Positions 16,251 through 35,970 of a DNA stretch of 54,907 nucleotides are shown here, one piece after another. The stretch lies in IMG/VR virus record IMGVR_UViG_3300025012_000108, positions 1 to 54,907 of that record; one strand, given 5' to 3'. The position numbers and the translations under genes were made by a program. A model generated the notes under the pieces. The model had not been told where the DNA came from. It worked only from the letters and a program-made list of their open reading frames with translations, and ran no database searches. How positions within the stretch are numbered: the first letter of the stretch is position 1; every line of letters begins with the position of its first letter. The stretch is from a virus. Taxonomy: Duplodnaviria; Caudoviricetes.

Positions 16251-16270
16251 ACCTTTAGGGGAGACGCCGC

Positions 16271-16352
16271 ACCCGCCGCGCCACTACCTAGCACGTTTCA
16301 CGCTGCATCACCTTCACCCGCTTTACTCACTAACGTAGCACGGACAGGCACT
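16271..16352 (+). repeat. Dispersed intergenic repeat family, copy R1
   Basis: Aligns by eye with 32451-32530 and 19961-20041 (gcgccac...tcacgc...tttac...ggcact). Confidence 0.7.
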
Positions 16353-16376
16353 ATAAAACCACAGGAGGGACCACAG

Positions 16377-16787
16377 ATGAAAACACTGGAAGAGATCAAG
16401 GCCGGTTACAAAAGCAACACGCTGGACGGGCGCGACCTTCACCGGTTGGCGCAGTTCATACCGGAAGCGGAACTGGCAGACTTCGGCTTGGAACTCAAAG
16501 AGGGAGCCACTCACAGCCACATTCCCCTCACCCGCGACGCGGTACTGGCCCAACTCAAGCATGACGTTGAATTCGGCTTTAAAAAGGCGCTTGACCAGCG
16601 CGGCATCTCGGCGGGGCTGATGTACGAGGTTGTCAAGATGTGGAACTGGGTTTTGGATGAGGGGATGGAAACCTTTGACTCCTACCCCATGTATGGCCTC
16701 CCTCTCTTTAAGGCCACGGCGGTCAAATACGGCTTTCTTAACCCCATCGGAGAAGACACCGGAGCAGAGAGCAAGTACGACAGTTAA
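16377..16787 (+). CDS. Hypothetical protein
   Basis: AGGAGG RBS; KALDQRGISAGLMYEVV and YGLPLFKATAVKYG. Confidence 0.75.
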   Translation: MKTLEEIKAGYKSNTLDGRDLHRLAQFIPEAELADFGLELKEGATHSHIPLTRDAVLAQLKHDVEFGFKKALDQRGISAGLMYEVVKMWNWVLDEGMETFDSYPMYGLPLFKATAVKYGFLNPIGEDTGAESKYDS

Positions 16788-17096
16788 ACCGGCTTGTAGA
16801 CACTCAACACCAATAAACAGGAGGGAAAGATGCATAACACGATGGAACTGGCCGCACCGTCTACTAGATCATGGGGTTACAGTCAAAAGCTTATGGTGAG
16901 AACCTTCACCGTAGATTGTTCTTCACCAGATGGGGTGCTCCGATAGGGACGGCAACGTTTCCTTGCCTGTAGAACTGACAATCACCCAACACCCTTCAAG
17001 GCTGTTCTTGACTGTCGGCTGAAGCTTCACCATTACAAGTATAAGATAGATTAGAAGCAATCCGCCCCCTTCCCCGCTAAAACGGGTACTTAGGGG

Positions 17097-17152
17097 GCAA
17101 CATTTTATCACCCATGCGTAATAGCTTTATCAGCGGTGATAAAATGTGTTGC
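17097..17152. promoter_or_regulatory. Inverted repeat with TATCA/TGATA boxes upstream of the RepL-like gene
   Basis: ACATTTTATCACC...GGTGATAAAATGT with an internal TTTATCAGC. Confidence 0.6.
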
Positions 17153-17183
17153 ATCCGTGATATGGAATGTGATATCTTTCTAC

Positions 17184-17624
17184 ATGCAAAATTCACGGCG
17201 CGTTTACCGTTATTCAGGCTCCAAAGAGATAGCAGACACCAATACTGGCGAAGTCGAACGCGCCGTTGTGGTGAAACAGAAAATTCAAGATATTAACTTT
17301 GTCAAAATATTTCTACCGGAAGGGGGATATCGAATGTACCCGAAAGAGATGAGCCAATCAGCAAGGGATTTGCTGGACTACCTGAAAGTGGTCATGGACA
17401 AGCAGAACGTAGCCATTGCACCCGTTGCCGAGATCCAGGAGCGGATAGACCTTTCAACCGCTTCCATTGCCCGCGCAAAGGTGCAGCTGATGGAACTGGA
17501 TTACATCAGGCAGCGCACCGCTAACGTCTACATTGTCAACCCTGGACACGCTTGTAAGGCGGCTGGGGATGATAGACAGAGCGTGTATGAGGCTTATTCC
17601 CTGCTACAACGCAAGGTGAAGTGA
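17184..17624 (+). CDS. RepL-like winged-helix replication/maintenance protein
   Basis: DTNTGEV, NFVKIF, wHTH region ending Y.VNP; possibly leaderless. Confidence 0.65.
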   Translation: MQNSRRVYRYSGSKEIADTNTGEVERAVVVKQKIQDINFVKIFLPEGGYRMYPKEMSQSARDLLDYLKVVMDKQNVAIAPVAEIQERIDLSTASIARAKVQLMELDYIRQRTANVYIVNPGHACKAAGDDRQSVYEAYSLLQRKVK

Positions 17625-17628
17625 GGAG

Positions 17629-18393
17629 GTGAATGTGGTCAACCTAGTTTGCTACGGCGGCGGGACAAACAGCACCGCGCTATTGGTGGAAAAGGTCAAG
17701 CGGGGCGAACCTGTTGACATTATCCTGTTTGCCGATACTGGCGCGGAGAAGCCGCACACCTACGCCTACGTAGAGATGTTTTCTGCTTGGCTGGTAGAGA
17801 GGGGCTACCCCGCTATCCAGACTGTGAAAGCGGTAAACATGGCAGGAGAGGTTTACACCCTCACCCAAGATTGCATAGACCGCAGGGCGCTTCCTTCGCT
17901 GGCCTATGGCTTTAAGACGTGTTCCCTGCGCTGGAAGTTGGCACCCCAAGAAAAGTTTCTCAACAACTTCGACCTGTGCAAAGTGGAATGGAAAGCGGGT
18001 CGGATGATTACTAAGCATGTTGGCTTTGATTGGGGTGAGTCTCACCGCGTCAAGGCTTACAGCGAAGATACCAAGTATGAAGTGACCTATCCCCTTGTTG
18101 ATTGGAGATGGGACCGCAAGCGCTGCGTAGAGGCGATCTTAGCCGCAGGGCTACCCCTCCCCGGCAAATCATCCTGTTTCTTCTGCCCATCCATGAAACC
18201 CCATGAGATAAAGGAACTTGAGCGGGATTACCCCGAACTTCTTCAACTCGCCCTTGAGATAGAGGCAAACGCCGAACTTCATAGCGTGGTTGGCTTGGGA
18301 CGGTCGTTCAGTTGGCGGGAGTTTCTAAAGCAAGGCAGCTTTGACTTTTGTGGCAACTCTATTGAGGCAGACTGTGGCTGCTATGACGGGTAG
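17629..18393 (+). CDS. PAPS-reductase-like adenine-nucleotide alpha-hydrolase
   Basis: YGGGTNS PP-loop; FADTGAE; YPL..W; KSSCFFCP. Confidence 0.8.
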   Translation: MNVVNLVCYGGGTNSTALLVEKVKRGEPVDIILFADTGAEKPHTYAYVEMFSAWLVERGYPAIQTVKAVNMAGEVYTLTQDCIDRRALPSLAYGFKTCSLRWKLAPQEKFLNNFDLCKVEWKAGRMITKHVGFDWGESHRVKAYSEDTKYEVTYPLVDWRWDRKRCVEAILAAGLPLPGKSSCFFCPSMKPHEIKELERDYPELLQLALEIEANAELHSVVGLGRSFSWREFLKQGSFDFCGNSIEADCGCYDG

Positions 18394-18408
18394 ATAGAGG
18401 GTATTGGA

Positions 18409-18579
18409 ATGGCTACAGTATTCGGGTGCCTCAACAAGTGGTGCAAACACATGATGCACTTTCGCTGTACGGCGAATGAGATTGAGATTGATGACAACGG
18501 GAGATGCTGCACTTTCGAGCCAAAAGTTGCTGAAAAGAAGCCGCCTTTCAGTGCCTATCTCCTACCACGTAGCGAGTAA
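18409..18579 (+). CDS. Small Cys-rich protein (DUF1540-like)
   Basis: C...WCKH....C.A..I.I....C.TF, translated by hand. Confidence 0.5.
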   Translation: MATVFGCLNKWCKHMMHFRCTANEIEIDDNGRCCTFEPKVAEKKPPFSAYLLPRSE

Positions 18580-18669
18580 GACACTGAAAGAGCTTCCAGC
18601 GCGACCCATGCAACGCGGTCGGCGGCTGCGCAGAAGGTAAAAGCGAAACGATTTTAAGCAGTTAATCAC
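18550..18669 (-). repeat. Dispersed repeat family, copy R2 (inverted) with conserved tail
   Basis: Similar to the reverse complement of 32414-32530; 18595-18614 is nearly complementary to 19979-19998. Confidence 0.75.
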
Positions 18670-18688
18670 AGAGAGAGGGGGAGGGGAG

Positions 18689-19327
18689 ATGAACGTCACG
18701 GAGGACCGCAAAGAGCTTTTCAAGGCCATAGCCGCAGCACAGGGGGAATTCACCACGGTGGAGAAGAACGCCAAGAATCCCCACTTCAACAGCAAGTTTG
18801 CCCCGCTGGATTCTATCATTGAGATGATCCGGCCCATTCTTCCCAAGCATGGCCTTGCGGTTGTCCAGTTCACCGACATACCGGAGAGCGGCAACGGGGT
18901 AATCATCGAAACCATCATCACCCACGAATCCGGCCAGTACATCAGCGGCAGGCTCGGGATGCCTACGGTGAAGCAAGACCCCCAGGGGTACGGCAGCAGC
19001 ATCACTTACGGTAGGCGCTATGCTTTGGGCGCGGCTCTCGGCATCGTGAGTGACGAGGATGTGGACGGCAACCAGCCGGAAGGCGCAGAGAAACAGACCA
19101 GGGCGCAGCAAAGGCCACAGCAAGGGGCCAAAACGGGTGTAGAGGGGCAGACCGCCACCGACCTGATATCCGAGGCTCAACAGAAGATGATCTTCGCCAA
19201 AATGAAGGCCAAGGGGCTGGCACCGGAGCGGCTGAAAGAAGCGTTTAAGGTGGAGAGTTCCAAGGTGCTAAAGAAGGATCAGATGAACGACATTCTGGCC
19301 TGGATCGACGGCGAAGCGGCACAGTAG
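18689..19327 (+). CDS. erf: ERF-family single-strand annealing protein
   Basis: KNPHFNSKFA.L; THESGQ; PQGYGSSITYGRRYAL...GI..D.D.DGN. Confidence 0.9.
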   Translation: MNVTEDRKELFKAIAAAQGEFTTVEKNAKNPHFNSKFAPLDSIIEMIRPILPKHGLAVVQFTDIPESGNGVIIETIITHESGQYISGRLGMPTVKQDPQGYGSSITYGRRYALGAALGIVSDEDVDGNQPEGAEKQTRAQQRPQQGAKTGVEGQTATDLISEAQQKMIFAKMKAKGLAPERLKEAFKVESSKVLKKDQMNDILAWIDGEAAQ

Positions 19328-19365
19328 CACTACTCGCCCTACTAGGGGCCACGGAGGGAAGGGGG

Positions 19366-19671
19366 ATGACCGTCATTCACATTTTACCAGCGCCAAAAGT
19401 CTCCCCCGCCCCCCGTATCACCGACGATGGCCGGGATACTCCTTGCACCATGTGCGGAGCCCCCCGCCTTTTCCCTGTAACCGGCCTACGTGGCGCGGAG
19501 TTGGAGAAGTGGCAAGCAGGGATGGACGCACAGCAGGAGAACTGGTTAGAGTGCCGCATCTGCTACGGACTCACTGAAGAAGAATGGGCAGAGAGATCCA
19601 GGTTGGCAGCGAAACGGCGGGAGCAGGAAGAGGCATGGGAAGAAGGACGCAAAATGACGCAGAGGACATAG
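19366..19671 (+). CDS. Hypothetical protein
   Basis: GGAGG RBS; two CxxC motifs. Confidence 0.6.
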   Translation: MTVIHILPAPKVSPAPRITDDGRDTPCTMCGAPRLFPVTGLRGAELEKWQAGMDAQQENWLECRICYGLTEEEWAERSRLAAKRREQEEAWEEGRKMTQRT

Positions 19672-19680
19672 GGGGAGCAG

Positions 19681-19935
19681 ATGATAAAGCACAGCACCAT
19701 ACAGACCAAGGTTTGCGGCTACAGAATGGAGATCAGTTTTGACTACACCCCCGCCTGCAAGGGCGAGAGGGAGCGCGGCAGCGGGGTTAAACTCTCCCCC
19801 GATGAGCCGGCAGATATAGATATAACCGGCGTCAAGCTTCTCGACCCCGGCGACATTTGGGAGATCATTACCGAGGAAGTCACTATCAGCACCAGGGATG
19901 TGATGGAGGCGGTTAACAAGTACCATGGCGAATAA
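19681..19935 (+). CDS. Hypothetical protein
   Basis: RBS; RERGSGVKLSPDEP motif. Confidence 0.65.
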   Translation: MIKHSTIQTKVCGYRMEISFDYTPACKGERERGSGVKLSPDEPADIDITGVKLLDPGDIWEIITEEVTISTRDVMEAVNKYHGE

Positions 19936-19960
19936 TCAAAGGCGTTTGGGGTGAAAGAGC

Positions 19961-20041
19961 ACCCCTGCGCCACTAGCTTGCATGGGTCACGCCGGAACGG
20001 GGCGCGGTGTTTACGTCGCGTTGTGGAAAGGACGGGCACTC
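19961..20041 (+). repeat. Dispersed repeat family, copy R3
   Basis: Begins ACCCCTGCGCCAC, as does 32451. Confidence 0.75.
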
Positions 20042-20081
20042 AAAAAGCGGTACTCAAATAAAATTGGGTGCCGCTTTTTTT
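20042..20081 (+). terminator. Intrinsic terminator (possibly bidirectional)
   Basis: AAAAAGCGGTACTCAA...TTGGGTGCCGCTTTTTTT. Confidence 0.85.
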
Positions 20082-20084
20082 ATG

Positions 20085-20123
20085 TTGACACGGCGACAGA
20101 TCGGCGTATATTGGGCGACAGAT
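20085..20123 (+). promoter_or_regulatory. Promoter with GGCGACAGAT direct-repeat operator
   Basis: TTGACA-16-TATATT; repeats at 20092-20101 and 20114-20123. Confidence 0.7.
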
Positions 20124-20154
20124 TATCACACTGACCAGCGGGGAGGATAAACAC

Positions 20155-20313
20155 ATGGCAAGGCGAACAGTCGATCTTAGCACCCGACACGACACGATAC
20201 TTGGCAAACTCATGATAGTGCTTGGCACTTCGATGGTGGAAACCATGCAGAGAGCACTGGAAGCCCTGGAAGAGAAGCAGGCGGCGAGGGACAAAGAGGT
20301 TGGAAAGTCGTGA
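20155..20313 (+). CDS. Ribbon-helix-helix protein (52 aa), paralog 1
   Basis: MARRTVDLSTRHDTILGKL...SMVETMQRALEALEEK; GGAGG RBS; translated by hand. Confidence 0.8.
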   Translation: MARRTVDLSTRHDTILGKLMIVLGTSMVETMQRALEALEEKQAARDKEVGKS

Positions 20314-20702
20314 ACTCTACCTACGGGCTCATAGACCCGCGCAACTCAGAGATCAAGTACATTGGCTGTACAAGCGACCCCAAGGCCAGGCTTTATGGCC
20401 ACATCGCTAGCCACAAAGGAAAAACCAAAGTGGCGCAATGGGTGAAAGAGCTTAAACAGCAGGGCTTGAAGCCTGAAATGGTAGTACTGGAGTACGGGCT
20501 GAACCATGACAAGGGCAGAGAGTCAGAATCGTTTTGGGCAGAGTATTTCCGGGCATTAGGGGCCAACCTTCTCAACACGAAAACTCCCGGCGACAGGGGT
20601 ATCAGTTTAGTAGGGGCCCCTTCGGCGTGGTATTGGCATTACGGGAGCCGTGATTCCTTCCACATTTACAACAAGTTTCTGGCGAACTCACAGCCGTTTT
20701 GA
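20310..20702 (+). CDS. GIY-YIG nuclease-domain protein
   Basis: YGLIDPR...KYIG.T..P..RL..H...E..W...LLN. Confidence 0.8.
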   Translation: MNSTYGLIDPRNSEIKYIGCTSDPKARLYGHIASHKGKTKVAQWVKELKQQGLKPEMVVLEYGLNHDKGRESESFWAEYFRALGANLLNTKTPGDRGISLVGAPSAWYWHYGSRDSFHIYNKFLANSQPF

Positions 20703-20825
20703 AGAAGGGGAGACACTACCCTTGCCACTTGCACCCCATCCGAGGTCCTGGCAACTCCGCTGAAGGGAAAAGCGAAAAAGTTTTAGGCAGTTAACCACCC
20801 GCACTGCGGGACATGGAGGGGAGAG

Positions 20826-21952
20826 ATGGTAAAGCCGGAAGATTTCACCAAGGTGCCGGTAAGCGAAGCAACCAATATACCGCCCAGTTGCCAGTTTGTA
20901 GAGGTATTCCGTGACAGGTATTGGGCTGTCACAATTGACGGCTGTTTGCTGTGGTACAAAGGGAACTCCCCCCAGTGTAACAGCAACAGGGCGGTAACGG
21001 AACATCTCACCAAGGGGTTAGGCCACCCCGGCGCTGACGTTCTCTTTCTCCCGCTGGTCTACAGGAAACACGACTGCCGCGACTACATCTAAGGGGGCCG
21101 CAAGTGACCGATCAAGAAAAGAAATCCCTCCGCTCCTTCCTCAAGGAGATGGAGAGGGAATACTACCTTGCTAGCATCGACCATAAAAACGCTCCCTGCG
21201 GTGCTATGGCCCTGTATCACACCGGCGCAGAGAAGATGGTGGAGCGGCTCTTGGAGAGCTACAAAGCGCAGTTTAGCGAAGACCTCTACCCCACCTGCGA
21301 AGTCTGCAACCTCCCCGTATCCGACGAGGACAGTGCCGGGCCTGGGAGCAACCTGCACATGTCCTGCGTCAAGCCGCCGTGTGACCACGCCGACGATTGC
21401 CCGTTGGATTACTGTGAACCGCTCTGCCCTGATAGAGCGAAGGTGGGAAAATGAAACGCTACATCAACGCCGTCCTTTACTGGCTCTTCCCTCAGTCGGG
21501 GGAGATTGCTTGTCTCAAGGCAAAACTGAAACTAAAGGAGGACCTGATCCAGACCATCCGCGCCAACCGTCAAACTATCCTCTACGAGAACTGCAAACTT
21601 GAGGCGGCGTATCATCGAGCGACAGCCGAGAGAGACGAAGCGCGGCATCAGGTGGCGGTGTATGAGGCAAAAGATGATATGTATCGCTACGATAAGCAGT
21701 TGGATGAGGGGGAATAGAGCTATGGGTGTCACTTATGCCATAGGCGACAAAGTAAGGCTGACCAAGGATATTTGGGAGGATCAGTGTGATGGGCTGATTC
21801 CCGGTCATTACCTTGGTTCACAGGGTGAAGAACTAGTAGTCAAGAAGGGAATGGACAAGTTCAGCGAGTGCGACAGGGTAGGTGTCGCCCACCAAAACCG
21901 CACGGATGACGCCTACTTTGTTGTGACGCTGGATGAAATAGAGTCCGTTTAG
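20826..21952 (+). other. Cluster of four small hypothetical CDSs (20826-21092, 21104-21454, 21451-21717, about 21722-21952)
   Basis: Contiguous RBS-led ORFs. Confidence 0.65.
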
Positions 21953-21980
21953 CCTGCAATTCAATCCAAGGAGGGAAGCA

Positions 21981-22427
21981 ATGGTCAAGCCTCATGTGCA
22001 GTTCAAAGTTCCCCACGATCTCCATACCCAAATCCGCGCCTACGGCGACCGCCACGGCCTCAAGGGTGACACGGCAGTGATGCTGCATCTGGTGACGGCG
22101 TTCTTCTCTGTCGGCAACCATGCGGAGTTCAGCAATCCCGAGCGCCTACCCAAGACCCCCAAAAAAAAGGCTGAATGGAAGCCGCTATCGACGCATACCA
22201 AGGCGAGGATAGCGGTGTATTCGTGGTTCGGGCGCACCCCTGATGCAACATCATCCTACATTGCCACCTTGTCGGGCCAGAGCGTCAACAATGCGGCTAA
22301 GCGCATCCAGGAACTTGCCGCCGAGGGGTATCTGGCGGCAACAGGCGAATACCGCAAATCATGCCACTCCTCAAAGCGCCTCACGGTTTGGAAACGCACG
22401 GATAAGCCGCTACCGGAGGGGCTGTAA
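21981..22427 (+). CDS. DNA-binding protein (RHH-like N-terminus plus winged HTH)
   Basis: HVQFKVPHDLH...; TSSYIATLSGQSVNNAAKRIQELAAEG. Confidence 0.6.
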   Translation: MVKPHVQFKVPHDLHTQIRAYGDRHGLKGDTAVMLHLVTAFFSVGNHAEFSNPERLPKTPKKKAEWKPLSTHTKARIAVYSWFGRTPDATSSYIATLSGQSVNNAAKRIQELAAEGYLAATGEYRKSCHSSKRLTVWKRTDKPLPEGL

Positions 22428-24016: not shown

Positions 24017-24170
24017 CTTCCCCGCTCACTCCGGTATACTGCGCAAACAATTTGACGCTATCCACATCGGGCATGGTGTGAGACGGCCATGATAGTCCCG
24101 GTGTCGCAATTCATTGCCACGCTGGCACGCGACCGCTGATTCAGGATGCCCCCTGTTTCAGCGGTTTTTT
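24013..24170 (+). promoter_or_regulatory. Promoter plus structured leader ending in an intrinsic terminator before the ibrB-like gene
   Basis: TTGACT-16-TATACT; ACCGCTGA...TCAGCGGT hairpin followed by a T run. Confidence 0.7.
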
Positions 24171-24184
24171 ATTTGGAGGATGGT

Positions 24185-24910
24185 ATGCACCAATGTTCTT
24201 TGTTTGACTTTGGAGGGGAGAAGCAGCACGAGGCACCAAATACAGACGATGCCTTGCAGCTTCTGGTTGGGGAGATATCCGGGCTCCCTGTTGAGGCGAA
24301 GGTAGAGGCTATCAACAAGGTGAAGTTGGCACTGCACGCCGTTTCCCCTTTCAACCATGAGCCTGTCGATTGCGTCCTGTGGGTGAGAAATAACGCAGTA
24401 AAAGCAAACACATGGAATCCAAATGCGGTTGCTCCGGTCGAGATGGAGTTACTTAAAGTATCCATTCTGCAAGACGGCTACACTCAGCCCATCGTCACCT
24501 TCCAGACCCCCGAATACAGGGAAGTGGTTGACGGCTTCCACCGTAACAGGGTAGGCAAGGAATGTCCCGAAGTGGCGGCACGGGTACATGGCTACTTGCC
24601 CGTTGTGACCATCAACGAGGGTAGGACCGACAAGAGCGACCGCATTGCTTCAACTATTCGCCACAATAGGGCGAGAGGGAAGCACAAGGTCGAGTCAATG
24701 TCTGATATCGTCATAGAACTGAAAAAACGCAACTGGTCCGACGCCAAAATCTGCAAAGAGCTTGGCATGGATGAGGATGAAGTCTTGCGCCTGTGCCAAG
24801 TCTCGGGACTGGTAGAGGTTTTTGCGGATGCCAACTTCAGCCAAGCATGGGATGCCGCCATTTTTTCTGATGATGAACTAGCGGTGCTTGACGAAGAGGA
24901 CATAGCCTAA
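24185..24910 (+). CDS. IbrB/YbdM-like ParB/Srx-domain protein
   Basis: AN.WNPN.VAP.EM.LL..SI..DGYTQPIV; VVDGFHR; STIRHNRARGKH. Confidence 0.88.
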   Translation: MHQCSLFDFGGEKQHEAPNTDDALQLLVGEISGLPVEAKVEAINKVKLALHAVSPFNHEPVDCVLWVRNNAVKANTWNPNAVAPVEMELLKVSILQDGYTQPIVTFQTPEYREVVDGFHRNRVGKECPEVAARVHGYLPVVTINEGRTDKSDRIASTIRHNRARGKHKVESMSDIVIELKKRNWSDAKICKELGMDEDEVLRLCQVSGLVEVFADANFSQAWDAAIFSDDELAVLDEEDIA

Positions 24911-25332
24911 TGGAGCGCATATACCACACATGGGACAAGTGGGAGTGCTACCCGGCTGGGTTCTACGACAACAACCCGCCCAAGGGGATGACCAGGGACG
25001 ACGCGGAGGCTTTTTACCGCAGTTTCCTTGCCGATATCCCCCTCTTTGAATCCTGCATGGAGCGGGTGATAACCGAGTGGAAAAACTCTTGTGAACACTA
25101 TCTGACCAACGAGCGCATGAACCGGATAGCGTGGATGGGGCAGACTGCCGTTTGCATCCACGCTGGCATCCCTTCCAAGTTTCGGGGCGGCTACAACCTG
25201 CTGACAGAGAATCAACAAAAGGCGGCAGACGAAGCGGCATTGCGTTACATGAACAGGTGGTTTATTGCCAACGGGCATCCTGAAATGACAATGGAGCAAG
25301 CGCAATCACGGTCGGAGGTCAACCTTTACTGA
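24910..25332 (+). CDS. Hypothetical protein between the IbrB-like and IbrA-like genes
   Basis: Translationally coupled; WE....GFY, W..SCEH.LTN..NRIAW.GQ. Confidence 0.8.
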   Translation: MERIYHTWDKWECYPAGFYDNNPPKGMTRDDAEAFYRSFLADIPLFESCMERVITEWKNSCEHYLTNERMNRIAWMGQTAVCIHAGIPSKFRGGYNLLTENQQKAADEAALRYMNRWFIANGHPEMTMEQAQSRSEVNLY

Positions 25333-26573
25333 TGAAAACTAAAAACTACCTCGACATTGACGTTTTGACAGCGGCCAAGGCCCGAATAGCTTTTACCTTT
25401 GACAACTTTCAGCGGATTTTCGTTTCCTTTTCCGGGGGCAAAGACAGCACCGTAATGCTTCACCTTGTGGCCGAAGAGGCTATCAAACGAGGCCGCAAGT
25501 TTGCTGTGATGCTGATCGACTTTGAGGCTCAGTACAAGTACACATCGGATAACGCGCTTGCTTTGTTTGAACAGTACAGGGACCACATAGAACTGTACTG
25601 GATATGCCTACCGATGGCTCTCCGCAACGCAGTCAGTAACTTTGAACCCTCGTGGACCTGTTGGGAGCCTGGAAAGGAAAAGGATTGGGTGCGACCTTTG
25701 CCTGACTTCCCCGGTGTTATCTCCGATCCGGACTATTTCCCTTTTTTCTCCCCGCGCATGGAGTTTGAAGAGTTTATCATCCTCTTTGCGGAGTGGTACA
25801 GCCAAGGAGAGCCAACAGCGGCCTTTGTTGGCATCCGCGCCGACGAAAGCCTTAATCGCTTCCGTACCATTGCCATCCACGACAAAGAAACATTTCAAGG
25901 CAAGCGGTGGACAACCAAAGTCGTTGATGAGGCCTACAACATCTATCCGATTTACGACTGGAAAACTAGCGACATTTGGGCATACCATGCCAAGACCGGC
26001 AAGATCCATAACCGTATCTACGACCTGATGCACCAAGCTGGCGTCCCTCTTTCTCAACAGCGCCTTTGTCAACCTTACGGAGACGACCAACGGCGGGGCT
26101 TGTGGCTCTATCATATCCTTGAGCCGGAGACGTGGTACAAGGTTGTTTGTCGCGTCAATGGGGCCAATAGCGGTTCACTTTACATCAACGAAACCGGCAA
26201 CGTGAACGGCTACAACAAGATAAACAAGCCAGAGGGCCACACGTGGAAGAGCTTTTGCAACCTGCTTTTATCCACTATGCCCGAAGTCACCCGTAACCAT
26301 TACCTGAAACGCTTCAAGGTTTTTATTGCGGGCTGGAAGGGGAGAGGCTACATTGACGGCATCCCTGATGAAGCGCCAAAGGTGTTAGAGGACGCGCATT
26401 GGGCTCCTTCCTGGCGGCGGCTATGCAAGGTGCTGTTGCGGAACGATTGGTGGTGTAAAGGGCTCGGATTAACTCAGCCGAAAAGCGAAGCTTACGGAAA
26501 GTACCTGAAGATTAAGAAGGCCAAGAAGGGGGGCGCAGATGAAGCTGGTTCCGGTGTGCTATGTGACGATTGA
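25332..26573 (+). CDS. IbrA/YbdN-like PAPS-reductase domain plus DUF3440
   Basis: SFSGGKDS; GIRADESLNR; PIYDW...DIW; QRLCQPYG; PSWRR.CK.LLRND. Confidence 0.9.
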   Translation: MKTKNYLDIDVLTAAKARIAFTFDNFQRIFVSFSGGKDSTVMLHLVAEEAIKRGRKFAVMLIDFEAQYKYTSDNALALFEQYRDHIELYWICLPMALRNAVSNFEPSWTCWEPGKEKDWVRPLPDFPGVISDPDYFPFFSPRMEFEEFIILFAEWYSQGEPTAAFVGIRADESLNRFRTIAIHDKETFQGKRWTTKVVDEAYNIYPIYDWKTSDIWAYHAKTGKIHNRIYDLMHQAGVPLSQQRLCQPYGDDQRRGLWLYHILEPETWYKVVCRVNGANSGSLYINETGNVNGYNKINKPEGHTWKSFCNLLLSTMPEVTRNHYLKRFKVFIAGWKGRGYIDGIPDEAPKVLEDAHWAPSWRRLCKVLLRNDWWCKGLGLTQPKSEAYGKYLKIKKAKKGGADEAGSGVLCDD

Positions 26574-26733: not shown

Positions 26734-26751
26734 CATCCCTATGGAGGAATA

Positions 26752-27291: not shown

Positions 27292-27313
27292 CCCCCCACT
27301 CATGAGGAAAGGC

Positions 27314-27472
27314 TTGACACTCTGCCGGGGGTTTGGTAGGATGCGGGCACAATTGAATAGACGCTCTATTGGCAGATAGAGTATCACCATAAGGATTTGG
27401 TTCCCATCTGGGGAGCCAGTCTAGCTAAAGCCCCCCTTACACTGCCATGTGAGGGGGGCTTTAGCGCTTTTT
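27314..27472 (+). promoter_or_regulatory. Promoter plus three-hairpin leader and terminator before the replication initiator
   Basis: TTGACA-17-TAGGAT; hairpins at 27364-27381, 27398-27418 and 27424-27465, then a T run. Confidence 0.75.
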
Positions 27473-27487
27473 GAAGGAGTGGCAAGG

Positions 27488-28351
27488 ATGGACCATCCTA
27501 ACCCCCAAGCCGAAGAGGGCCACGTAGACATAGCCAATGGAATTGTTGAGGCGCTTTGTCGTGTCCAGCTTTCCGGCTATGAGTCAAGAGTTCTATGGGC
27601 CTTATTCCGCAAAACCTACGGTTGGCACAAGAAGGAAGACCGGATATCCCTCACCCAATTTCAGGTGCTCACTGGCCTACCTATTCCCAAAATCAGCAAT
27701 ACCCTAAATCGGCTAGTCTTGCGGAAAATGGTAAGGGTTACCGAAAATGGTAACGGTAAAGTCAAAACCTATGGATTCCAAAAGGTATTTTCGCTTTGGT
27801 GTGACTTGCCGGAAAAGGTAATACCTAAATCGGCAATACCCGAAAAAGGCATTACCGAAAATGGGTTGCAGGGGTTGCCTATTTCGGCAAGTACAAAAGA
27901 AACTATTACAAAAGAAAAAGAATCTATTATTACCATAGAGCCGGAAGTTGAGAATTTGCTGTCTCCTTCAGATCAGGTCATGATGGCCTACAACAAATTT
28001 GCCCCGTCCTTCAACCGGGTCATGGACATGGGCACATCAACAAGGTGGGTCAACGCAAGGTGTATTTTTGAAAAGTACAAAAACCACCCTGAAGGGCCAC
28101 GCGGTTTTCTGGACTGTCTTTTTAAAAAAGCAGAGGCATCCGATAGGTTGACTAACCGGGACGGGGGGTGGAAGGGATACCCTCCGGACCTCGATTGGTT
28201 TCTCAAAGAGGAAAATTATATCAAGGTCATAGAGGGCAAGTTTGATAATGGCAATTGCCCCCCCGTTCAACGGGTGGATCAGCGCAAAAAACAAGGGTTT
28301 AAGGGGGTGTCAAGTGGTCTCGAAGCAGCATTTTCTGAAGCAAATGACTAA
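27488..28351 (+). CDS. Lambda O-like replication initiator
   Basis: PQ.E.GH..IAN.I.EAL...LS..E.RV.....RKTYGW.KK.DRIS..Q; C-terminal DWF.K..N..KV.EG. Confidence 0.88.
   Translation: MDHPNPQAEEGHVDIANGIVEALCRVQLSGYESRVLWALFRKTYGWHKKEDRISLTQFQVLTGLPIPKISNTLNRLVLRKMVRVTENGNGKVKTYGFQKVFSLWCDLPEKVIPKSAIPEKGITENGLQGLPISASTKETITKEKESIITIEPEVENLLSPSDQVMMAYNKFAPSFNRVMDMGTSTRWVNARCIFEKYKNHPEGPRGFLDCLFKKAEASDRLTNRDGGWKGYPPDLDWFLKEENYIKVIEGKFDNGNCPPVQRVDQRKKQGFKGVSSGLEAAFSEAND
27719..27935. repeat. Replication-origin iterons plus A-rich tract inside the O-like gene
   Basis: Imperfect palindromic 16-mers (TTACCGAAAATGGTAA, TTGCCGGAAAAGGTAA, ATACCTAAATCGGCAA, TTGCCTATTTCGGCAA) followed by ACAAAAGAAA repeats. 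Confidence 0.75.
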
Positions 28352-28607
28352 GTTGATGATAATCTGTGATGAACAGGTTTCAGACGAAAGGATTAAGGCG
28401 TATTACGAGGTTCTTTCCCCCGACTTCACCAATGAGCAGTTTGACAAGGCTCTCAACTTGGCCTTGAAGAACAGCTTCAAGTTCCCCCCCATCGCCGCCT
28501 TTTACAAGGCTGACCCTTCCCAACCCGCCCCGCTCATGGTCAACGAGCCGGTAACGCCCGAAGAGTCCAGAGCCATCAGGGAGGTACTGAACCGCTATGG
28601 ACTGTGA
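28314..28607 (+). CDS. Putative helicase loader/accessory protein
   Basis: Between the initiator and DnaB; FPP.A motif. Confidence 0.55.
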   Translation: MVSKQHFLKQMTKLMIICDEQVSDERIKAYYEVLSPDFTNEQFDKALNLALKNSFKFPPIAAFYKADPSQPAPLMVNEPVTPEESRAIREVLNRYGL

Positions 28608-29946: not shown

Positions 29947-29995
29947 AAGACGAAGTAACCGCCCACCTCCTAGACACCCCTGAGCAGTTGCAGGA

Positions 29996-30529
29996 GTGCA
30001 TCGAGGCCAAGAGAGCGAAACCGGGGAGGCTCCCGTGAAGCGTACCATCCCGACACCGCCAAACGCATGTGTCATGGGAAAAGAAAAATACTCCCCGGCG
30101 AACGTGACGTGCATTTCCTGCCGCAAACAGGGCGTGGCGTGCCCCTTCCCCTGCGCCGTTCCAGAAAGTCCCGTTAAAAACAATCCTCCGCGTGCGGGCA
30201 AGAAAGAGGGACCGGGCAAGCAGCCCAATAAAACGGAATCAGCCTACGGTCGCCGCCTGGAAATGGAATATCCCGGCTCCCGCGTCCGGTACGAGGCTAT
30301 CACCTTCACCCTAGACAACGGTCACCGGTACACCCCTGACTGGATCGTATTTCATCCAGACGGGAAGATCCTTTGCGTCGAGGTGAAGGCCAAGGGGAAG
30401 AACGGCTTCCGGCATCCGAGCTACCAGCGGGCGCGGTGCATGTTCGACCAGTGCCGGGTAGAGTTGCCGATGTTCGCATGGAGATGGGCTGATAGGTGCG
30501 GGGCTAATTGGGATGTGGCGGATTACTAG
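29996..30529 (+). CDS. PD-(D/E)XK endonuclease (resolvase/DUF1064-like)
   Basis: NKTE..Y; YE...F; YTPDW; VEVK. Confidence 0.7.
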   Translation: MHRGQESETGEAPVKRTIPTPPNACVMGKEKYSPANVTCISCRKQGVACPFPCAVPESPVKNNPPRAGKKEGPGKQPNKTESAYGRRLEMEYPGSRVRYEAITFTLDNGHRYTPDWIVFHPDGKILCVEVKAKGKNGFRHPSYQRARCMFDQCRVELPMFAWRWADRCGANWDVADY

Positions 30530-30585
30530 GCTGTATACCGGGGGGCAAAGCAAAGGCCCCTTTCCTTTCGGATCGGGGCCGGGGG

Positions 30586-32393
30586 CTACTCGGTTTTCTC
30601 CTGCCAAAAGGTATACCCTTCCGGGTCCACGCCAAGCCAGCGGCAATGCTGATAGCAAGAAGTTGACCCGCCTTTGCTGGTATGTTGAAGCAGGTAATCT
30701 TCCACCAGTCGCCAGTTCTGTGTAGCCTTTCTTTTCCTGTGTGAAATCTCGCGCTCCACGTTGCGCATAATCCCAAGCTGGAATTTTGGCGACAACACCT
30801 CTTCAACGTAGAGTGCACTGACCAACTCCGTCATACTCCCTCCTTGTAATGGGCTATTTGCCCTCATAATACCTATTGTTCTGCTGCCACTGTAACACGG
30901 TCAATAGCAAACCCATTTGGTGGATCAGGGATTTCTATTTCGATTTGGTGGAACACTGTCCGCGTAGGATAGTTAACCCCGGTATGTTCCAGTGTTGTTA
31001 TGATATTGCTTTCTGCGTCTGATAGCACGACATGTAATTTGATTTTCACCTTTTATCTCCCCTCGTGATACCTACGCTGCGCCTCTTTCCTCATCCCCGC
31101 CACCTGTTCATCAGTCACCCCTGCCGCTCCGTCTATCTGGCCGCTGAGATGGTAGAGGGTGAAGGTGCCGAGGACGATGAAGGCCAGGGTGAACCAGCCC
31201 ATAAAGCGGGCGCTACGGGGTCTGGTCATCATGGGTGGCCTCCCTTGCAGCGAGTTCAGATCTGATGAAGGCCGCCCAACGGTCAATGCGAGCAAAAGCC
31301 TCTTCATACCCTTCGTCTAGATACCCGCCCTCATCGCAGGGCTTACCCTCTATCCACACCCAAGGACACGTACACCCAAGGCACGGATATTGGGTATCTC
31401 TGCCGTGTGCCTTTTTGAACTGGCACAAGGGGCAAGCTTCCTGCCCGTCATCAAAGGGGTCTGCTGCGTACGCCGTTATCTGATTTTCGCCTGTGTACTT
31501 CCGCCGCAAGTCAGCCAACGCAAGCAACGACTCACGCAGCGTTTCCGTTGAAACATCCTCAAAACGTTTATCCTTGTTCATTCCCCCTCCCTCCTATCCC
31601 TACCTGGTTTACATCCCATCGTAATCCTCCTTAGTCCCCGATAGAGCCATAAGGCACATCATCAAAACCCCCAGGAAAGCGCCGGTAACCAGACCAGCGA
31701 AGAAATACAGCGCGTGGCTGATGGTCATGCAGATACCCCCTGTCGTATGGTCGCCGCTTCTGCCGGGAAATGAAGCGTCATGCAAGGTGGGCAGATAGTC
31801 GCCGTCTCCCCCGTGGCTCCATTCCCCTCTTTCGTTCCCTGGCCCTCCCCGCAGCACATGCACTTGCGCGGCATCGATGTGAGCCGGTGTTCCACGCCAA
31901 CCAAGTCCCGCACAATGGCGAGGGTGTCCGCAAAGAGTTTATCCCGCGCTGCGCGCCCATCGTACCGGGACTGCTGAGAGTTGCAAAGGGCTTCGACAGT
32001 CACGGTCAACGCTGCTGCTAGTTTGTCCTGCATTACTCCCTCCTTGTGGCATTGAAATGGAATGGTCAGGCTACCACTTGTTGCAAGCGGTTATGCCCGC
32101 TATGATGGCAATCAATGTTGCTGCTATAGGGTGGTGGTGCGCTATGGCGACCCCCGCTGATATCGCTAACCCGAGTCCGGTCAGTTCTTGGGCTGTCATG
32201 GCTGTGACGCCGCTCTGAATTGCTGGTGAAAAATGCTGCCGTGGGCAATGTTGGTCAGTCGGTTGGTGTCCAGATAGTCAGCCGCCTCTTTGACTAAGCG
32301 CCTTAACTGCCGCAGTTCGTCTTGAAGTTCCTTTTTGCTGGTCCTCAGATTAGATACCCGCTTTCCAGCGGATTCGCAAACATTATCGCACAT
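30586..32393 (-). other. Block of small leftward early hypothetical CDSs (30586-30867, 31053-31307, 31213-31581, 31609-31728, 31725-32033, 32066-32199, 32196-32393)
   Basis: Closely packed ORFs, most with GGAGG RBS. Confidence 0.6.
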
Positions 32394-32413
32394 CTTTTTT
32401 CCCTCCTTTGGGG

Positions 32414-32530
32414 GTAGTTAAACATCTAAAACCGTTTCGTTTTTCCCTCCACCCCTGCGCCACCATCTCGCCCGGTCACGCTGAAACTCCTTCACCGTTT
32501 ACCCGCTACGTGGCAGGGGATAGGCGCTCA
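32414..32530 (+). repeat. Dispersed repeat family, copy R5, with conserved tail on the minus strand
   Basis: Homologous to R1 and R3 (direct) and R2 (inverted). Confidence 0.75.
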
Positions 32531-32899
32531 AGGGCTGCAATCCCCGCCGCAATGGGTGCAACTGGTGTGGTAATCTGCACAGGATATGAACTTGCCGCAG
32601 TGGGGGCAGTTGAACTTCCGGGTGCGGCGTTTTTCGGGCGGCGTAAGCTTTTCGCCCACATCCTTCAACGCCTCGTCGATGTTAACATACTGGTGGTCAA
32701 CGGCGGGGCGCGTCTTGCTGTCTATGTAGTCTTTGGGCCAAGGTACATCAGTGGGGCGCGACCTGTGTTGGTTAAAAGCGCGTTCCTGAGTGAAGACTTC
32801 GGCCTTGCTTACGTCTGTTGTATACCCGCCGCCGTTGGCCCAAAAGAGCATGTCGTTGCCAACATAACCCCGCTTGTCCTGCAAATAAAAATCCATCAC
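32528..32899 (-). CDS. Hypothetical protein
   Basis: FYLQD.R.YVGND.LFWA..G.GYTTD..KA; C-terminal Zn ribbon. Confidence 0.75.
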   Translation of the reverse strand: MMDFYLQDKRGYVGNDMLFWANGGGYTTDVSKAEVFTQERAFNQHRSRPTDVPWPKDYIDSKTRPAVDHQYVNIDEALKDVGEKLTPPEKRRTRKFNCPHCGKFISCADYHTSCTHCGGDCSP

Positions 32900-33132
32900 T
32901 CCCTCCCCTTTAGCTGTGCGTCACGCTGTGCCTCTTTCCCGCTGAGCGTGCAAATTTTGATAAACTCCGACAGAGAAACTCCTTCCCTTGCCGCCCTCGC
33001 CTTCATCGTATCCCGCTCATGCGCTGTCACCCTTAGGCTGACGATGAACAGCTTGGGACCGTTGGATCCGGGAGGACGGCCAGCGCCGGGACGCTTGCCG
33101 CCTGAACCGTGGCCGCTGCCGTGGCCGCCCAT
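32896..33132 (-). CDS. RHH (MobC-like) DNA-binding protein with GGKRPGAGRP hook
   Basis: VSLRVT..E......A...GVSLSEFI. Confidence 0.65.
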   Translation of the reverse strand: MGGHGSGHGSGGKRPGAGRPPGSNGPKLFIVSLRVTAHERDTMKARAAREGVSLSEFIKICTLSGKEAQRDAQLKGRE

Positions 33133-33897
33133 TATCGATTCACCTTGGGGCGGAGGATGGCACCAGTGAGTTTGGCCACTTCGTATCCGTACCATTTTCC
33201 GTTGGGGTCGCTGACTATACCCTTGGCTACGGCTTCGCCGGATACCGTGTGTTCAATGTAACCGGACGGGGCTACTATGGCCCAATGAGTGAGCGGCACC
33301 ATTCCCTCAGGACAAAGGGTCGCGTCTATCAGTTTCAACGCTTTTTCCGCCCCTGCATCGTTGTTGTATGTTACCCTGTTGCGGAATACGCTGGTTGCGA
33401 CATCAAGGGCCGCTTTGTAACGATCTAACTCCGTGCTCATGTACCCTCCTTATTGCCGAGGTATCCGCCCCGGCTCGGTGTTTTTGGTCTTAGTTGAAGT
33501 TTTTGATTGCAGTCAGTGGAAGGGCAATCTCGCCTCGGCTAGTTGCGCCAGTAGCAGGGTTGTAAGGTTTGAGCTGTGCGGAGTCTTCGCCGCCGATAAC
33601 TCTGAAGCCAAGGATTACAAAGCATCCTGTAACTGCGCCCTTTACTATCTGGTTCACATTGAATCCGTTCATTTTATCCCCCGTTGAAGTTGTTGTGTGA
33701 TGTGCCGTTCTTGGACGGGTTGGTGAGGGTTAGGGCACGTCATCGAATGTGGCGTTAAACCCGATTTTGTCGCAGTAAGCAGCCGCTTGGTTAAAAATCT
33801 GTTCCAGCGTTTCGCCAGTGAATTCTTTGACCTCTGCCGGTTTTTTACCCGCGTCGGCGTCAGCGCAGCTTAACCAGAATTTAAAAGTGCGTTTCAT
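33132..33897 (-). other. Small early hypothetical CDSs (33132-33440, 33490-33672, 33730-33897)
   Basis: RBS-led ORFs downstream of the promoter at 33939-33967. Confidence 0.6.
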
Positions 33898-33938
33898 ATC
33901 ATCCCCTCCTGAGTTGTTTTGTCCTTCACTGTGAATAT

Positions 33939-33967
33939 AGCTTACCACTGCCATTTGATTGCGTCAA
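33939..33967 (-). promoter_or_regulatory. Leftward early promoter with AT-rich UP element
   Basis: TTGACG-17-TAAGCT on the minus strand. Confidence 0.65.
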
Positions 33968-34012
33968 GCGGAATAATCAAAATAATGTAAAATATTTTGC
34001 TGAGGGTTTTTA

Positions 34013-34083
34013 AGTGCCTGCCAGCGACAGGTGCAGGGAGACGGTGGAGCCGTTGCAACGAGACCCTACCTTGATAGCGCCCC
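34013..34083. repeat. Repeat R6, near-duplicate of 35869-35940
   Basis: Shared GCAGGGAGACGGTG.AGCCG and CCCTACCTTGATAGCGCCCC. Confidence 0.85.
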
Positions 34084-34187
34084 GGATTATCTACCTTCAC
34101 GCCCCCACCCCCTGCCGTATGATAGCCGACTCTGCCGGGAAATGCCGCTCCATGCAGGGGGGGCCGCTTTCTCTTCTGCTGTTTTCA

Positions 34188-34439
34188 TCACTCCCTCCCC
34201 TTTAGCTGTGCGTCACATGGCTTGAACCCTGTACCTTCTGTAGGCATCGGCCACCACTCGGTAACTTCATGGTAGCCGCTGAAATGGTCAATCTGCCACT
34301 CACCAAGCTCATGAAAATACCGGCCTACAGCAAGATGTTTCACCCCTTTGGCCTTGACGATGACGTCCACGGATACCCCGGAGGCTGTCTCGTGCGGGTG
34401 AGTCGGTGTTTTGCGCGGCGGGAATCCTTCACCTTTCAT
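34188..34439 (-). CDS. DUF551-like hypothetical protein
   Basis: EVTEWWPMP motif. Confidence 0.6.
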   Translation of the reverse strand: MKGEGFPPRKTPTHPHETASGVSVDVIVKAKGVKHLAVGRYFHELGEWQIDHFSGYHEVTEWWPMPTEGTGFKPCDAQLKGRE

Positions 34440-34451
34440 CTTTTCTCCTCC

Positions 34452-34613
34452 TTACTTGTCGTTACGGAGCTGTGCGTCACGCTGTGCCTCTTTTTCTTCC
34501 AACACCGCTAACGCCTTAGCTACCACCTGTGGCTGTGTAAGTTCCAGTTTAGCGCAGAGCCGGTTAAGCCGGTCTACATGGTGTTGTTTCAGGTTGATGT
34601 GTCGTATTGGCAT
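34452..34613 (-). CDS. Ribbon-helix-helix protein (53 aa), paralog 3
   Basis: MPIRHINLKQHHVDRLNRL...VVAKALAVLEEKEAQRD; translated by hand; AGGAG RBS. Confidence 0.7.
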   Translation of the reverse strand: MPIRHINLKQHHVDRLNRLCAKLELTQPQVVAKALAVLEEKEAQRDAQLRNDK

Positions 34614-34615
34614 GT

Positions 34616-34837
34616 CTACTCCTTTCTGGCAAGTTTCAGATATCCGGTGAGGGGTGGTTCGGTGGGCCGCATATCTGCCACGTTGATGTTGCAGAGACTA
34701 AGCCGGTCTGTCAGCCGGGGGAGGTTGGCATGACTGTACAAAATCAACTTTTGGGACTCTTTGAAGTCATGAGCAAAGTTCCATCCGGTGAATGAATCCA
34801 AAGCTTCTCTCACTGCTTTCTTTGTGACTCGCTTCAT
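34616..34837 (-). CDS. Hypothetical protein
   Basis: ORF within the operon. Confidence 0.55.
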   Translation of the reverse strand: MKRVTKKAVREALDSFTGWNFAHDFKESQKLILYSHANLPRLTDRLSLCNINVADMRPTEPPLTGYLKLARKE

Positions 34838-34840
34838 GTT

Positions 34841-35428
34841 TTACCCCCATTGTTGCGCCATAGCGTCGGCTATCCCCTGAAATGTCCTGCTCCGCTCCTT
34901 CCACCTGTTTGGTCCCGGTGGCATTTTCCACACCCGTTGTTCTCTTTCTTCTGGAGCGGCAGGGGTGAACAAATCTCCGCCGTTGCAATGCGTGGGGATG
35001 AGGGGGCGCAGGTTGTGCAGCCATAGACATGTGGCTTTTGTCTCGCCATGGCCGAACTGCCACGGCTGTATGATCTGGTCCGGCCTGCGTATCCTACTAC
35101 TGATGATGCTGATTGGATTCTCCAGCGCCCAACGAAGAATGTTACAGGCCATCAGTTGCGAGACGAAATCAAGCGCGGCCTGTTGCCGGCCATCGGCTAT
35201 CTTCTCGGGGAAGTGGCGCGAACCACTCACGGCGAGATGGGTGCATGGCGGGTGGAATATGCCTAAGTCCCAATGCCCCCCACGGAGAACGTCAAGTATG
35301 TCGCCTTGGATGTGAAAGGGGCTATCGTCCTCACTCTCCAGCAAGTCGCAGCTCCATGCGTCATGGCCGCGCTTGCGGAAAGCTTCGCGCACCCGCCCGG
35401 AATATTCACAGCCGACAATCACCCTCAT
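34841..35428 (-). CDS. Short phage-type DNA cytosine-C5 methyltransferase
   Basis: V.VGCE.SG; SCDL; HPPCT.L; LENP; QPWQFGH; RSRTFQGIADAMA.QW. Confidence 0.8.
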   Translation of the reverse strand: MRVIVGCEYSGRVREAFRKRGHDAWSCDLLESEDDSPFHIQGDILDVLRGGHWDLGIFHPPCTHLAVSGSRHFPEKIADGRQQAALDFVSQLMACNILRWALENPISIISSRIRRPDQIIQPWQFGHGETKATCLWLHNLRPLIPTHCNGGDLFTPAAPEEREQRVWKMPPGPNRWKERSRTFQGIADAMAQQWG

Positions 35429-35588
35429 AACGGATATCCTTGGACTTTAGCCTTCTCTATCACGTGTTCTACCCCGCATTTTTTGTGCATCTGATGTGGG
35501 ACCCCGTCAATAAATATAGTGTATTTGTGGCCTCCGCGCAGAGGTTTCATACACCTAAAGCAAAGATTTGGAGTGTGAGATTTAGTAA

Positions 35589-35774
35589 TCATTTCAACTC
35601 CATAGACTGTAAGTTAAGGCCAGTCAAGGCATTGTAGGTGCGAACCTTCAGCGCCATGTTGTCGCGCTCATCAAACACCAAAGCTTTCGCCGGTGACTCT
35701 TCAAAAGTGATCTGGCAGTTTTCGCGGCCTATGTAGACATCCGCCGAAGCGTCATGCAGGACAAACCGTTTCAT
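35589..35774 (-). CDS. Small early hypothetical protein
   Basis: GGGGGATGATATG start context shared with 33897. Confidence 0.6.
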   Translation of the reverse strand: MKRFVLHDASADVYIGRENCQITFEESPAKALVFDERDNMALKVRTYNALTGLNLQSMELK

Positions 35775-35803
35775 ATCATCCCCCCTTTGCAATTGTTGAT
35801 ACA

Positions 35804-35832
35804 TTTATAATGCAAAGGTGTTACATTGTCAA
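35804..35832 (-). promoter_or_regulatory. Leftward early promoter
   Basis: TTGACA-17-TATAAA on the minus strand, with an A/T-rich upstream tract. Confidence 0.75.
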
Positions 35833-35868
35833 GAGAGAAATACAAAATTTCTGCGGATGTTTTTTACG

Positions 35869-35940
35869 AGTGTCTGTCAGTGACAGAGGCAGGGAGACGG
35901 TGAAGCCGGTTGCAGCGATTCCCTACCTTGATAGCGCCCC
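35869..35940. repeat. Repeat R7, near-duplicate of 34013-34083
   Basis: See R6. Confidence 0.85.
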
Positions 35941-35970
35941 AAGGGTGCTCTTTCTCCCCATAAGTTTTTG

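Follow-up and report, generated by a model that had tools for sequence, protein, structure and literature searches.

Dispersed intergenic repeats at cassette junctions in the early arms of an uncultured podophage-like genome

Here we describe a family of dispersed intergenic repeats of about 110 nt in the genome of an uncultured tailed phage (IMG/VR virus record IMGVR_UViG_3300025012_000108). The window, by which we mean the whole stretch of DNA analyzed, corresponds to a complete virus record (54,907 bp), and its two ends overlap (12-137 is identical to 54782-54907). A preliminary description of this sequence had listed six elements; we identified eight full copies and one truncated copy, two of the full copies (13690-13795 and 16884-16991) being new. 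With a probability that we put at about one half, these repeats act at the DNA level and are not RNA genes: they would be boundary or linker modules between genes, providing patches of homology for the exchange of cassettes.

The closest cultured match of the large terminase (TerL) is only 48% identical, and the lineage is therefore new. The phage belongs to an uncultured, podophage-like lineage, unrelated to T4-type phages. Its genome was split into blocks from the AT skew and the open reading frames (ORFs):

36.0-54.9 kb, on into 0-10.5 kb, plus strand: structural block, with terminase, portal, major head, and collagen-like tail fibre
10.6-15.1 kb, leftward: early arm
15.0-30.5 kb, rightward: early and replication arm, with Erf, ParB-like and PAPS-reductase-like proteins, an O-like initiator, and DnaB
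30.5-35.8 kb, leftward: early arm, with small ORFs and a DNA methyltransferase

No integrase or transposase turned up among the ORFs scanned (92 with PHROGs and 63 with Pfam), nor did a reverse transcriptase or a phage RNA polymerase. The phage encodes an annealing protein, Erf, and several candidate DNA-binding proteins (RepL-like winged-helix, NikA-like ribbon-helix-helix (RHH), and ParB-like). The copies of the element and the features that adjoin them are as follows:

13690-13795, plus strand: new element copy, antisense to the local genes, filling the whole gap between 13801-14166(-) and 12691-13698(-); full-profile E 2.9e-15 (this copy helped to build the profile)
16248-16358, plus strand: element copy R1, sense, beginning at the stop codon of 15996-16250 and ending 18 nt before the ATG of 16377-16787
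16884-16991, plus strand: new, degenerate element copy, sense, with a TTGACT hexamer 13 nt downstream
18545-18656, minus strand: element copy R2, antisense; the Erf gene, 18689-19327, has as its leader the reverse complement of this copy's 5' flank
19937-20046, plus strand: element copy R3, sense, beginning 1 nt past the stop of 19681-19935
20042-20079: terminator-like hairpin after the 20.0-kb copy (no other copy has one), outside the repeat
20042-20707, plus strand: GIY-YIG cassette, with a terminator, a promoter, a 52-aa RHH-like ORF, and a GIY-YIG nuclease, 20310-20702 (Pfam GIY-YIG, E 3.3e-6)
20085-20112: promoter-like site TTGACA-16-TATATT after the 20.0-kb copy
20708-20798, minus strand: truncated copy, antisense, with a clear flank and a degenerate core
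32427-32533, plus strand: element copy (R5 of the preliminary description), antisense, overlapping the stop of 32528-32896(-) by 6 nt; its flank is the leader of 32196-32393(-)
33967-33939: promoter-like site TTGACG-17-TAAGCT downstream of the 34.0-kb copy
34006-34092, minus strand: element copy without the 5' flank, sense
34093-35863, minus strand: methyltransferase cassette of seven small genes, including a DNA methyltransferase (34841-35428), between two direct copies
35804-35832, minus strand: promoter-like site TTGACA-17-TATAAA, 31 nt past the 3' end of the 35.9-kb copy
35864-35970, minus strand: element copy, sense, between back-to-back promoters, with orthologues in relatives G2, G3, L140, L141, and L155
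35971-36000, plus strand: sigma-70-like promoter TTGACA-18-TATGAT, abutting the 5' end of the 35.9-kb copy

The leftward site at 35804-35832 was read by eye; the promoter scan omits it (its -10 ends in A). The two ORFs of the GIY-YIG cassette (20155-20702) overlap by 4 nt, and the product of the first is RHH-like by eye, without a family match. The second protein, of 130 aa, matches the catalytic domain over its first ~80 residues only, has no recognized DNA-binding domain, and falls below the family cut-off of TIGR01453 (E 1.5e-4). Together, the two proteins might form a homing endonuclease in two parts or a pair of the toxin-antitoxin type. Beside the 34.0-kb copy, a 33-aa mini-ORF, 34087-34188(-), has a start region identical to that of gene 32528-32896 and shares, over 58 nt of its 3' part, 81% identity with the 3' end of 31725-32033; it looks like a recombination scar.

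The family is real. A profile of the four core copies, run with nhmmer, matched 16260-16359(+) (E 1.7e-21), 18541-18641(-) (E 4.8e-22), 19955-20048(+) (E 1e-20), and 32447-32537(+) (E 4.1e-20), and it also reached the two distant copies at 34006-34077(-) (E 0.011) and 35868-35936(-) (E 0.034). All six elements of the preliminary description were thus recovered where it had placed them (E 4.8e-22 to 0.034). The same profile found the unlisted copy at 13715-13793(+) (E 0.037). The distant copies also held up against shuffled controls, as only 1 of 100 dinucleotide-shuffled windows gave a match of at least 9.7 bits, compared with three matches beyond the seeds in the real window. Reciprocally, a profile of the 34.0/35.9-kb type and its orthologues matched 13733-13794 (E 0.0016) and 19947-20046 (E 0.003), and the two subtypes are therefore related, with the 20.0-kb copy (R3) as a bridge. 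A wider profile of 15 copies, including their flanks and drawn from the window and its relatives, gave E values of 1.7e-27 to 2.9e-15 for seven window copies, which are self-matches, and detected the degenerate copy at 16884-16991(+) (E 1.1e-7), which is absent from its seed set.

The repeat is longer than first described: the ~80 nt given in the preliminary description correspond to a true length of about 107-112 nt, with a core of ~85 nt common to all copies. Three blocks of this core are the best conserved, GGGTCNCGCTG, TTCACCGT, and GACAGGCACTCAA, and they are kept across subtypes and in both orientations. The paralogues of the window are otherwise old, with a mean column identity of 49%, i.e., about half of the columns aligned on average. 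Upstream of the core, a flank of ~25 nt has two forms, purine-rich in sense copies and pyrimidine-rich in antisense copies; in the latter, the reverse complement of the flank serves as the leader of the next gene. The near-complementarity reported between 19979-19998 and 18595-18614 holds at 18 of 20 positions. For the partial copy at 20712-20798, a 49-nt stretch of flank is 80% identical to that of the 18.6-kb copy (18621-18669; D15), whereas its core went undetected by the profile.

The copies are strictly intergenic. Every copy occupies a gene gap in one of the two early arms, within 13.7-36.0 kb, and the structural half has no copy. They overlap the firmer gene calls by 9 nt at most; for two copies there is also an overlap with doubtful small ORFs, of 35 and 87 nt, in a region where the non-coding share is only 18%. 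Several copies span a whole gap, from the upstream stop codon to the ribosome-binding site. The orientations given earlier hold against the gene blocks: relative to the local genes, the sense copies are those at 16.3, 16.9, 20.0, 34.0, and 35.9 kb, and the antisense copies those at 13.7, 18.6, 20.7, and 32.5 kb. A sigma-70-like -35 hexamer follows four of the window's five sense copies, 13-44 nt beyond their 3' end, and copies in G2 and L155 are followed by one too. No promoter-like site lies inside any copy; such sites are found only 12-44 nt past the 3' end of some sense copies.

The relatives that could be used are all metagenomic fragments, namely, G2 (the same as L127, 24.5 kb), G3 (18.5 kb), L140, L141, L155, and L154. 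They are highly mosaic with respect to the window, with short blocks of 80-100% identity amid unrelated DNA, and hold nine further copies, one of them truncated. At 3860-3908 of G2, an antisense copy is cut off after the first block, and its 3' half is swapped for a GC-rich hairpin and T-run that point against the local genes. The family is rare and confined to one small phage clade. A loose DNA pattern returned at least 119 stretches in IMG/VR, and true copies were present in 2 of 123 loci (those stretches and four others); two subtype-specific patterns retrieved G2 and G3 only. Scanning metagenomes gave 30 stretches, of which 6 were true (two being G2 and G3 again) and 24 false, and scanning bacterial species genomes gave 17 stretches and no true copy. 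Near and distant INPHARED searches with 16-21 kb had a single match, the cassette gene at 16.5-16.8 kb (66-73%). The Erf protein found three IMG/VR loci, none carrying the element; a search for relatives with the DnaB protein and a pattern for the 20.8-kb leader found nothing.

Copies of the element lie at cassette junctions, and the earlier suggestion that they are recombination handles for cassette exchange is supported by concrete events. The methyltransferase cassette (1.86 kb, with its own promoter and seven small genes) is flanked by the direct copies at 35.9 and 34.0 kb and is absent from L140 and L141. These two genomes have a single hybrid copy instead: its 5' part and the DNA upstream match the 35.9-kb copy, and its 3' part, the promoter, and the next gene match the 34.0-kb copy, with the switch inside a 20-nt stretch that is identical in both copies. 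The 1.86-kb cassette is therefore an insertion or deletion with a crossover inside a copy. By its sequence, the hybrid has the structure expected of recombination between two copies, or of the reverse insertion. Six genomes part within about 10 nt of the 3' end of the orthologous 35.9-kb copy and run on into four or more unrelated sequences.

Other copies also border variable DNA. Across G3, L140, and G2, the 32.5-kb copy keeps 85-93% identity, and each of the four genomes has a different gene upstream of it; the 65-aa gene downstream of the copy is missing from G3, and minor-strain contigs of sequencing run X4 have joints at this copy (32053->32428 and 32067->32411). In L154, a clean 112-nt element (627-738) stands between the same flanks that enclose 6 nt in the window (11502-11507). 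Another contig of run X4 (depth 13.6 vs about 600) carries the joint 20043->20708, which leads from the 3' end of the 20.0-kb copy to the edge of the truncated inverted copy and skips the GIY-YIG cassette. The 16.3-kb and 16.9-kb copies form a direct pair around a single gene, 16377-16787 (phrog_5706). Its DNA is 66-73% identical to genes of unrelated ~155-164-kb Klebsiella, Serratia, and Erwinia phages, which would make it a typical travelling cassette.

The nearest known counterpart is the promoter-early stem-loop (PeSL) of T4-type phages. PeSLs are intergenic modules of ~100 bp, and recombination between them deletes, inserts, and circularizes the flanked genes (Arbiol et al. 2010, PMC2839356; Comeau et al. 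2014, PMC4122927). Each combines a sigma-70 promoter, a G/C stem-loop terminator, and a Shine-Dalgarno sequence, and all point with the gene (PMC2839356). PeSLs and the element are alike as repeated, conserved modules of ~100 bp between small accessory early genes that begin at the stop codon of the preceding gene. In both cases, the flanked cassettes vary in presence between close relatives, with the crossover inside the repeat and no dedicated recombinase. Indeed, recombination between copies that deletes or inserts flanked genes in relatives is seen here in the L140/L141 hybrid and the joint 20043->20708. However, the ~85-nt core has neither a promoter nor a stem-loop terminator inside it, the promoters being outside and at a variable distance. 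In addition, four of the nine copies are inverted relative to the genes, whereas PeSLs are all co-oriented. The two have no sequence relation and belong to unrelated phage lineages. The elements work like PeSLs but are not PeSLs.

Lambdoid boundary or linker sequences, known from the modular-evolution model, are likewise short conserved intergenic joins of unrelated modules. They are short and are not known to form a dispersed multi-copy family within one genome. The window also has junction repeats of this kind, of 12-31 nt, besides the ~110-nt family.

The copies persist as conserved islands between flanking genes that are unrelated from genome to genome. In the reading as exchange modules, each element takes up the interval between the stop codon of an early gene and the point where the promoter or ribosome-binding site of its neighbor begins. 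Whole cassettes would then be added, deleted, or swapped, without cutting genes, when copies recombine either inside a single genome or across relatives that infect the same cell, and the recombinase would be the phage's own Erf or the host machinery. We infer that the exchanges are driven by homology at the copies, with Erf or RecA as the agent, and exchange, instead of a separate sequence-specific role of the core blocks, would be the reason why the element is kept.

Several observations weigh against this explanation. The enrichment of breakpoints at copies is modest: the ends of the homology blocks with G3 (21.6-36.3 kb) fall within 10 nt of a copy in 3 of 33 cases vs about 0.8 expected, and 4 of 30 joint ends are at copies vs about 1.5 expected, among the 15 of 46 joints listed. 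Most mosaic joints of the clade lie at other, shorter boundary repeats of 12-31 nt. A 12-nt direct repeat at 30860/31060, for example, accounts for a 199-nt deletion that removes gene 30873-31049; the deletion occurs in runs X2 and X4 (in X4 at a depth of 276 vs about 960, roughly a quarter) and is fixed in L140. Longer exact repeats of 31 nt (32894-32924 = 34186-34216) and 26 nt (32912-32937 = 34468-34493) cover last codons, ribosome-binding site, and next ATG and are common to three gene pairs; the metagenome unitigs of run X1 break exactly there. Inverted copies are incapable of simple deletions, and no inversion was found among the relatives, of which only five are distinct and all come from a few related samples. 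The joint 20043->20708 may reflect a replacement of the GIY-YIG cassette instead of a deletion. Finally, the conservation of three blocks in old paralogues and in both orientations points to a sequence-specific reader, which homology-driven recombination by itself does not require.

This last point leads to a second explanation, which we regard as possible, although only tentatively: the core could be a cis-regulatory DNA signal that is read by a phage regulator or by a nucleoid protein of the host and that sets or insulates early transcription units, and recombination would be a by-product. The three short blocks would fit such a signal, as no RNA fold accounts for them, and so would the -35 hexamers beyond most sense copies. 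The 35.9-kb copy sits between divergent promoters in all six genomes (window, G2, G3, L140, L141, and L155). Orthologous copies are 85-93% identical, whereas the promoter DNA beside them either cannot be aligned or has an identity of about 70%, and candidate readers are at hand in the RepL-like, NikA-like, and ParB-like proteins. However, the distance from the end of the element to the -35 varies from 12 to 44 nt, unlike the fixed geometry of an activator, and no promoter adjoins the antisense copies, the 16.3-kb copy, or the L154 copy. Inspection of the core revealed no dyad or evenly phased sub-repeat.

It is unlikely that the copies are functionless relics of a small, non-autonomous mobile element that multiplied in the early region in the past and has since decayed. 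The presence or absence of 112 vs 6 nt between identical flanks in L154 and the window could be read in this way, as could the strictly intergenic placement in both orientations and the limitation of the family to one small phage clade (17 of 17 bacterial and 24 of 30 metagenome pattern matches were false). REP/BIME, ERIC, and Correia elements and miniature inverted-repeat transposable elements are defined by palindromic hairpins or terminal inverted repeats. They resemble the present family in being intergenic, in both orientations, about 100 nt long, and polymorphic in presence. Such hairpins or inverted repeats were not found here, however, and the scan of bacterial species genomes detected no copy. 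Terminal inverted repeats and a target-site duplication are both absent from the L154/window junctions, a weak similarity of the ends in some copies is not common to all, and no cognate transposase is encoded among the scanned ORFs. Moreover, the paralogues are old, yet the orthologues are better conserved than the neighboring intergenic DNA, unlike what neutral decay would give.

An action at the RNA level is very unlikely. The copies would act either as an antisense regulator or by pairing of sense and antisense copies within a polycistronic transcript, which around the Erf cassette, for instance, could provide a substrate for RNase III. The preliminary description had proposed an antisense-RNA circuit like P1 c4 or P4 CI, which are processed structured small RNAs that act on short target boxes in the same operon. 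The likeness lies in repeated complementary sequences in a phage early region, but the rest of the analogy failed. The element is not a structured RNA and has no conserved fold: RNAalifold on the 15 copies gave no consensus pair on either strand, no covariation was found, and the subfamily alignments gave only weak, invariant helices of -4 to -14 kcal/mol. The z-scores of the minimum free energy of single copies ranged from -3.2 to +1.6 and were mostly near 0 vs shuffles. Rfam had no match at the gathering score in the whole window, and at E<=5 on 13.0-36.5 kb, it had two chance matches, neither on a copy. Promoter and terminator scans found no strong pair that frames any copy as its own gene, and one copy is outside any operon.

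The second RNA-level proposal was long-range pairing. As an RNA duplex, the 18.6-kb and 20.0-kb copies reach a dG of -89 kcal/mol vs -59 when shuffled (z -5.5), with 11 nt of exact complement, and pairing is physically possible for this pair; the 16.3/18.6-kb pair has a z of -4.2. However, a strong duplex is what any inverted repeat yields, and the 16.9/18.6-kb pair has a z of +0.7. In L140, the sole sense copy is upstream of the operon promoter, and the antisense copy therefore has no partner in the transcript. The 35.9-kb copy, the most conserved one, lies between divergent promoters and is probably transcribed by neither of them. No public sequencing run was listed as an RNA run holding this stretch.

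Other candidates for a function of the copies were tried and rejected. A closing helix, CCCCTGC/GCAGGGG, proposed from two copies, was paired in 60.9% of cells vs 54.5% when shuffled and 57.6% when slid by 3 columns, and a 5-bp hairpin before the last block of the 34.0/35.9-kb subtype is lost in G2, G3, L141, and L155. The excess of C over G on the element strand (-0.11 to +0.17) has no consistent bias that would mark a Rho-utilization site. Likenesses to a sigma-54 promoter, DnaA box, Chi, boxA, CRISPR repeat, and parS were looked for by eye only, none being common to all copies, and small ORFs inside copies have their frames broken by 1-nt indels between orthologues.

One can also imagine, as a long shot, that the three core blocks are the signal for a phage DNA reader and part of an integrase-free system of cassette exchange. 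Candidate readers would be the RHH-like and GIY-YIG pair, an HNH/DUF968 protein, or the ParB-like protein, and breaks or protein bridges at every copy would steer Erf-mediated recombination to gene gaps. If true, this would be a phage counterpart of the integron, made of a nuclease and an annealing protein. The copies themselves do not resemble integron attC sites, as they occur in both orientations with no palindromic fold, and the scanned ORFs include no integrase. A narrower version, in which the copies are the cleavage or recognition sites of a free-standing phage nuclease (RHH-like plus GIY-YIG, or HNH/DUF968) whose breaks drive exchange, is highly improbable, since the GIY-YIG cassette, although placed at the 3' end of one copy, abutting the truncated inverted copy, and skipped by a minor-strain contig, is a single association, and since its short nuclease has no recognized DNA-binding domain.

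Other features of the genome were noted. A search for tRNA and tmRNA genes in the window found none. Collagen-like Gly-X-Y repeats occupy 3660-4290, within the gene of the 1822-aa tail fibre. Three iteron-like direct repeats of ~16 nt at 27682-27866 lie inside the O-like replication initiator gene and, by analogy with the placement in lambda, are likely the origin. Directly upstream of this gene, 27314-27465 holds a strong promoter-like site, TTGACA-17-TAGGAT with a TG, followed by a hairpin with an 18-bp perfect stem and a T-run, which may be an attenuator or a leader terminator. At 24146-26573, the ParB-like protein adjoins a PAPS-reductase/DUF3440 protein, a pairing that we take to resemble IbrB/IbrA, and a second PAPS-reductase-like gene is at 17635-18393; these genes may form a DNA-modification module.

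From a biological perspective, how phages swap accessory genes without damaging their neighbors is a long-standing question. To our knowledge, most experimental work on repeated boundary cassettes comes from T4-type phages. The present genome has a comparable arrangement in an unrelated uncultured lineage, with a repeat that is neither a promoter nor a terminator and that occurs in both orientations. In practice, such repeats break metagenome assemblies, as unitig ends cluster there, and they mark where strain-level variation in cassettes is to be expected. The three conserved blocks provide a concrete handle for asking if a protein reads such linkers. Finally, conserved linkers may solve this problem more generally than the PeSLs do with their promoter-terminator design.

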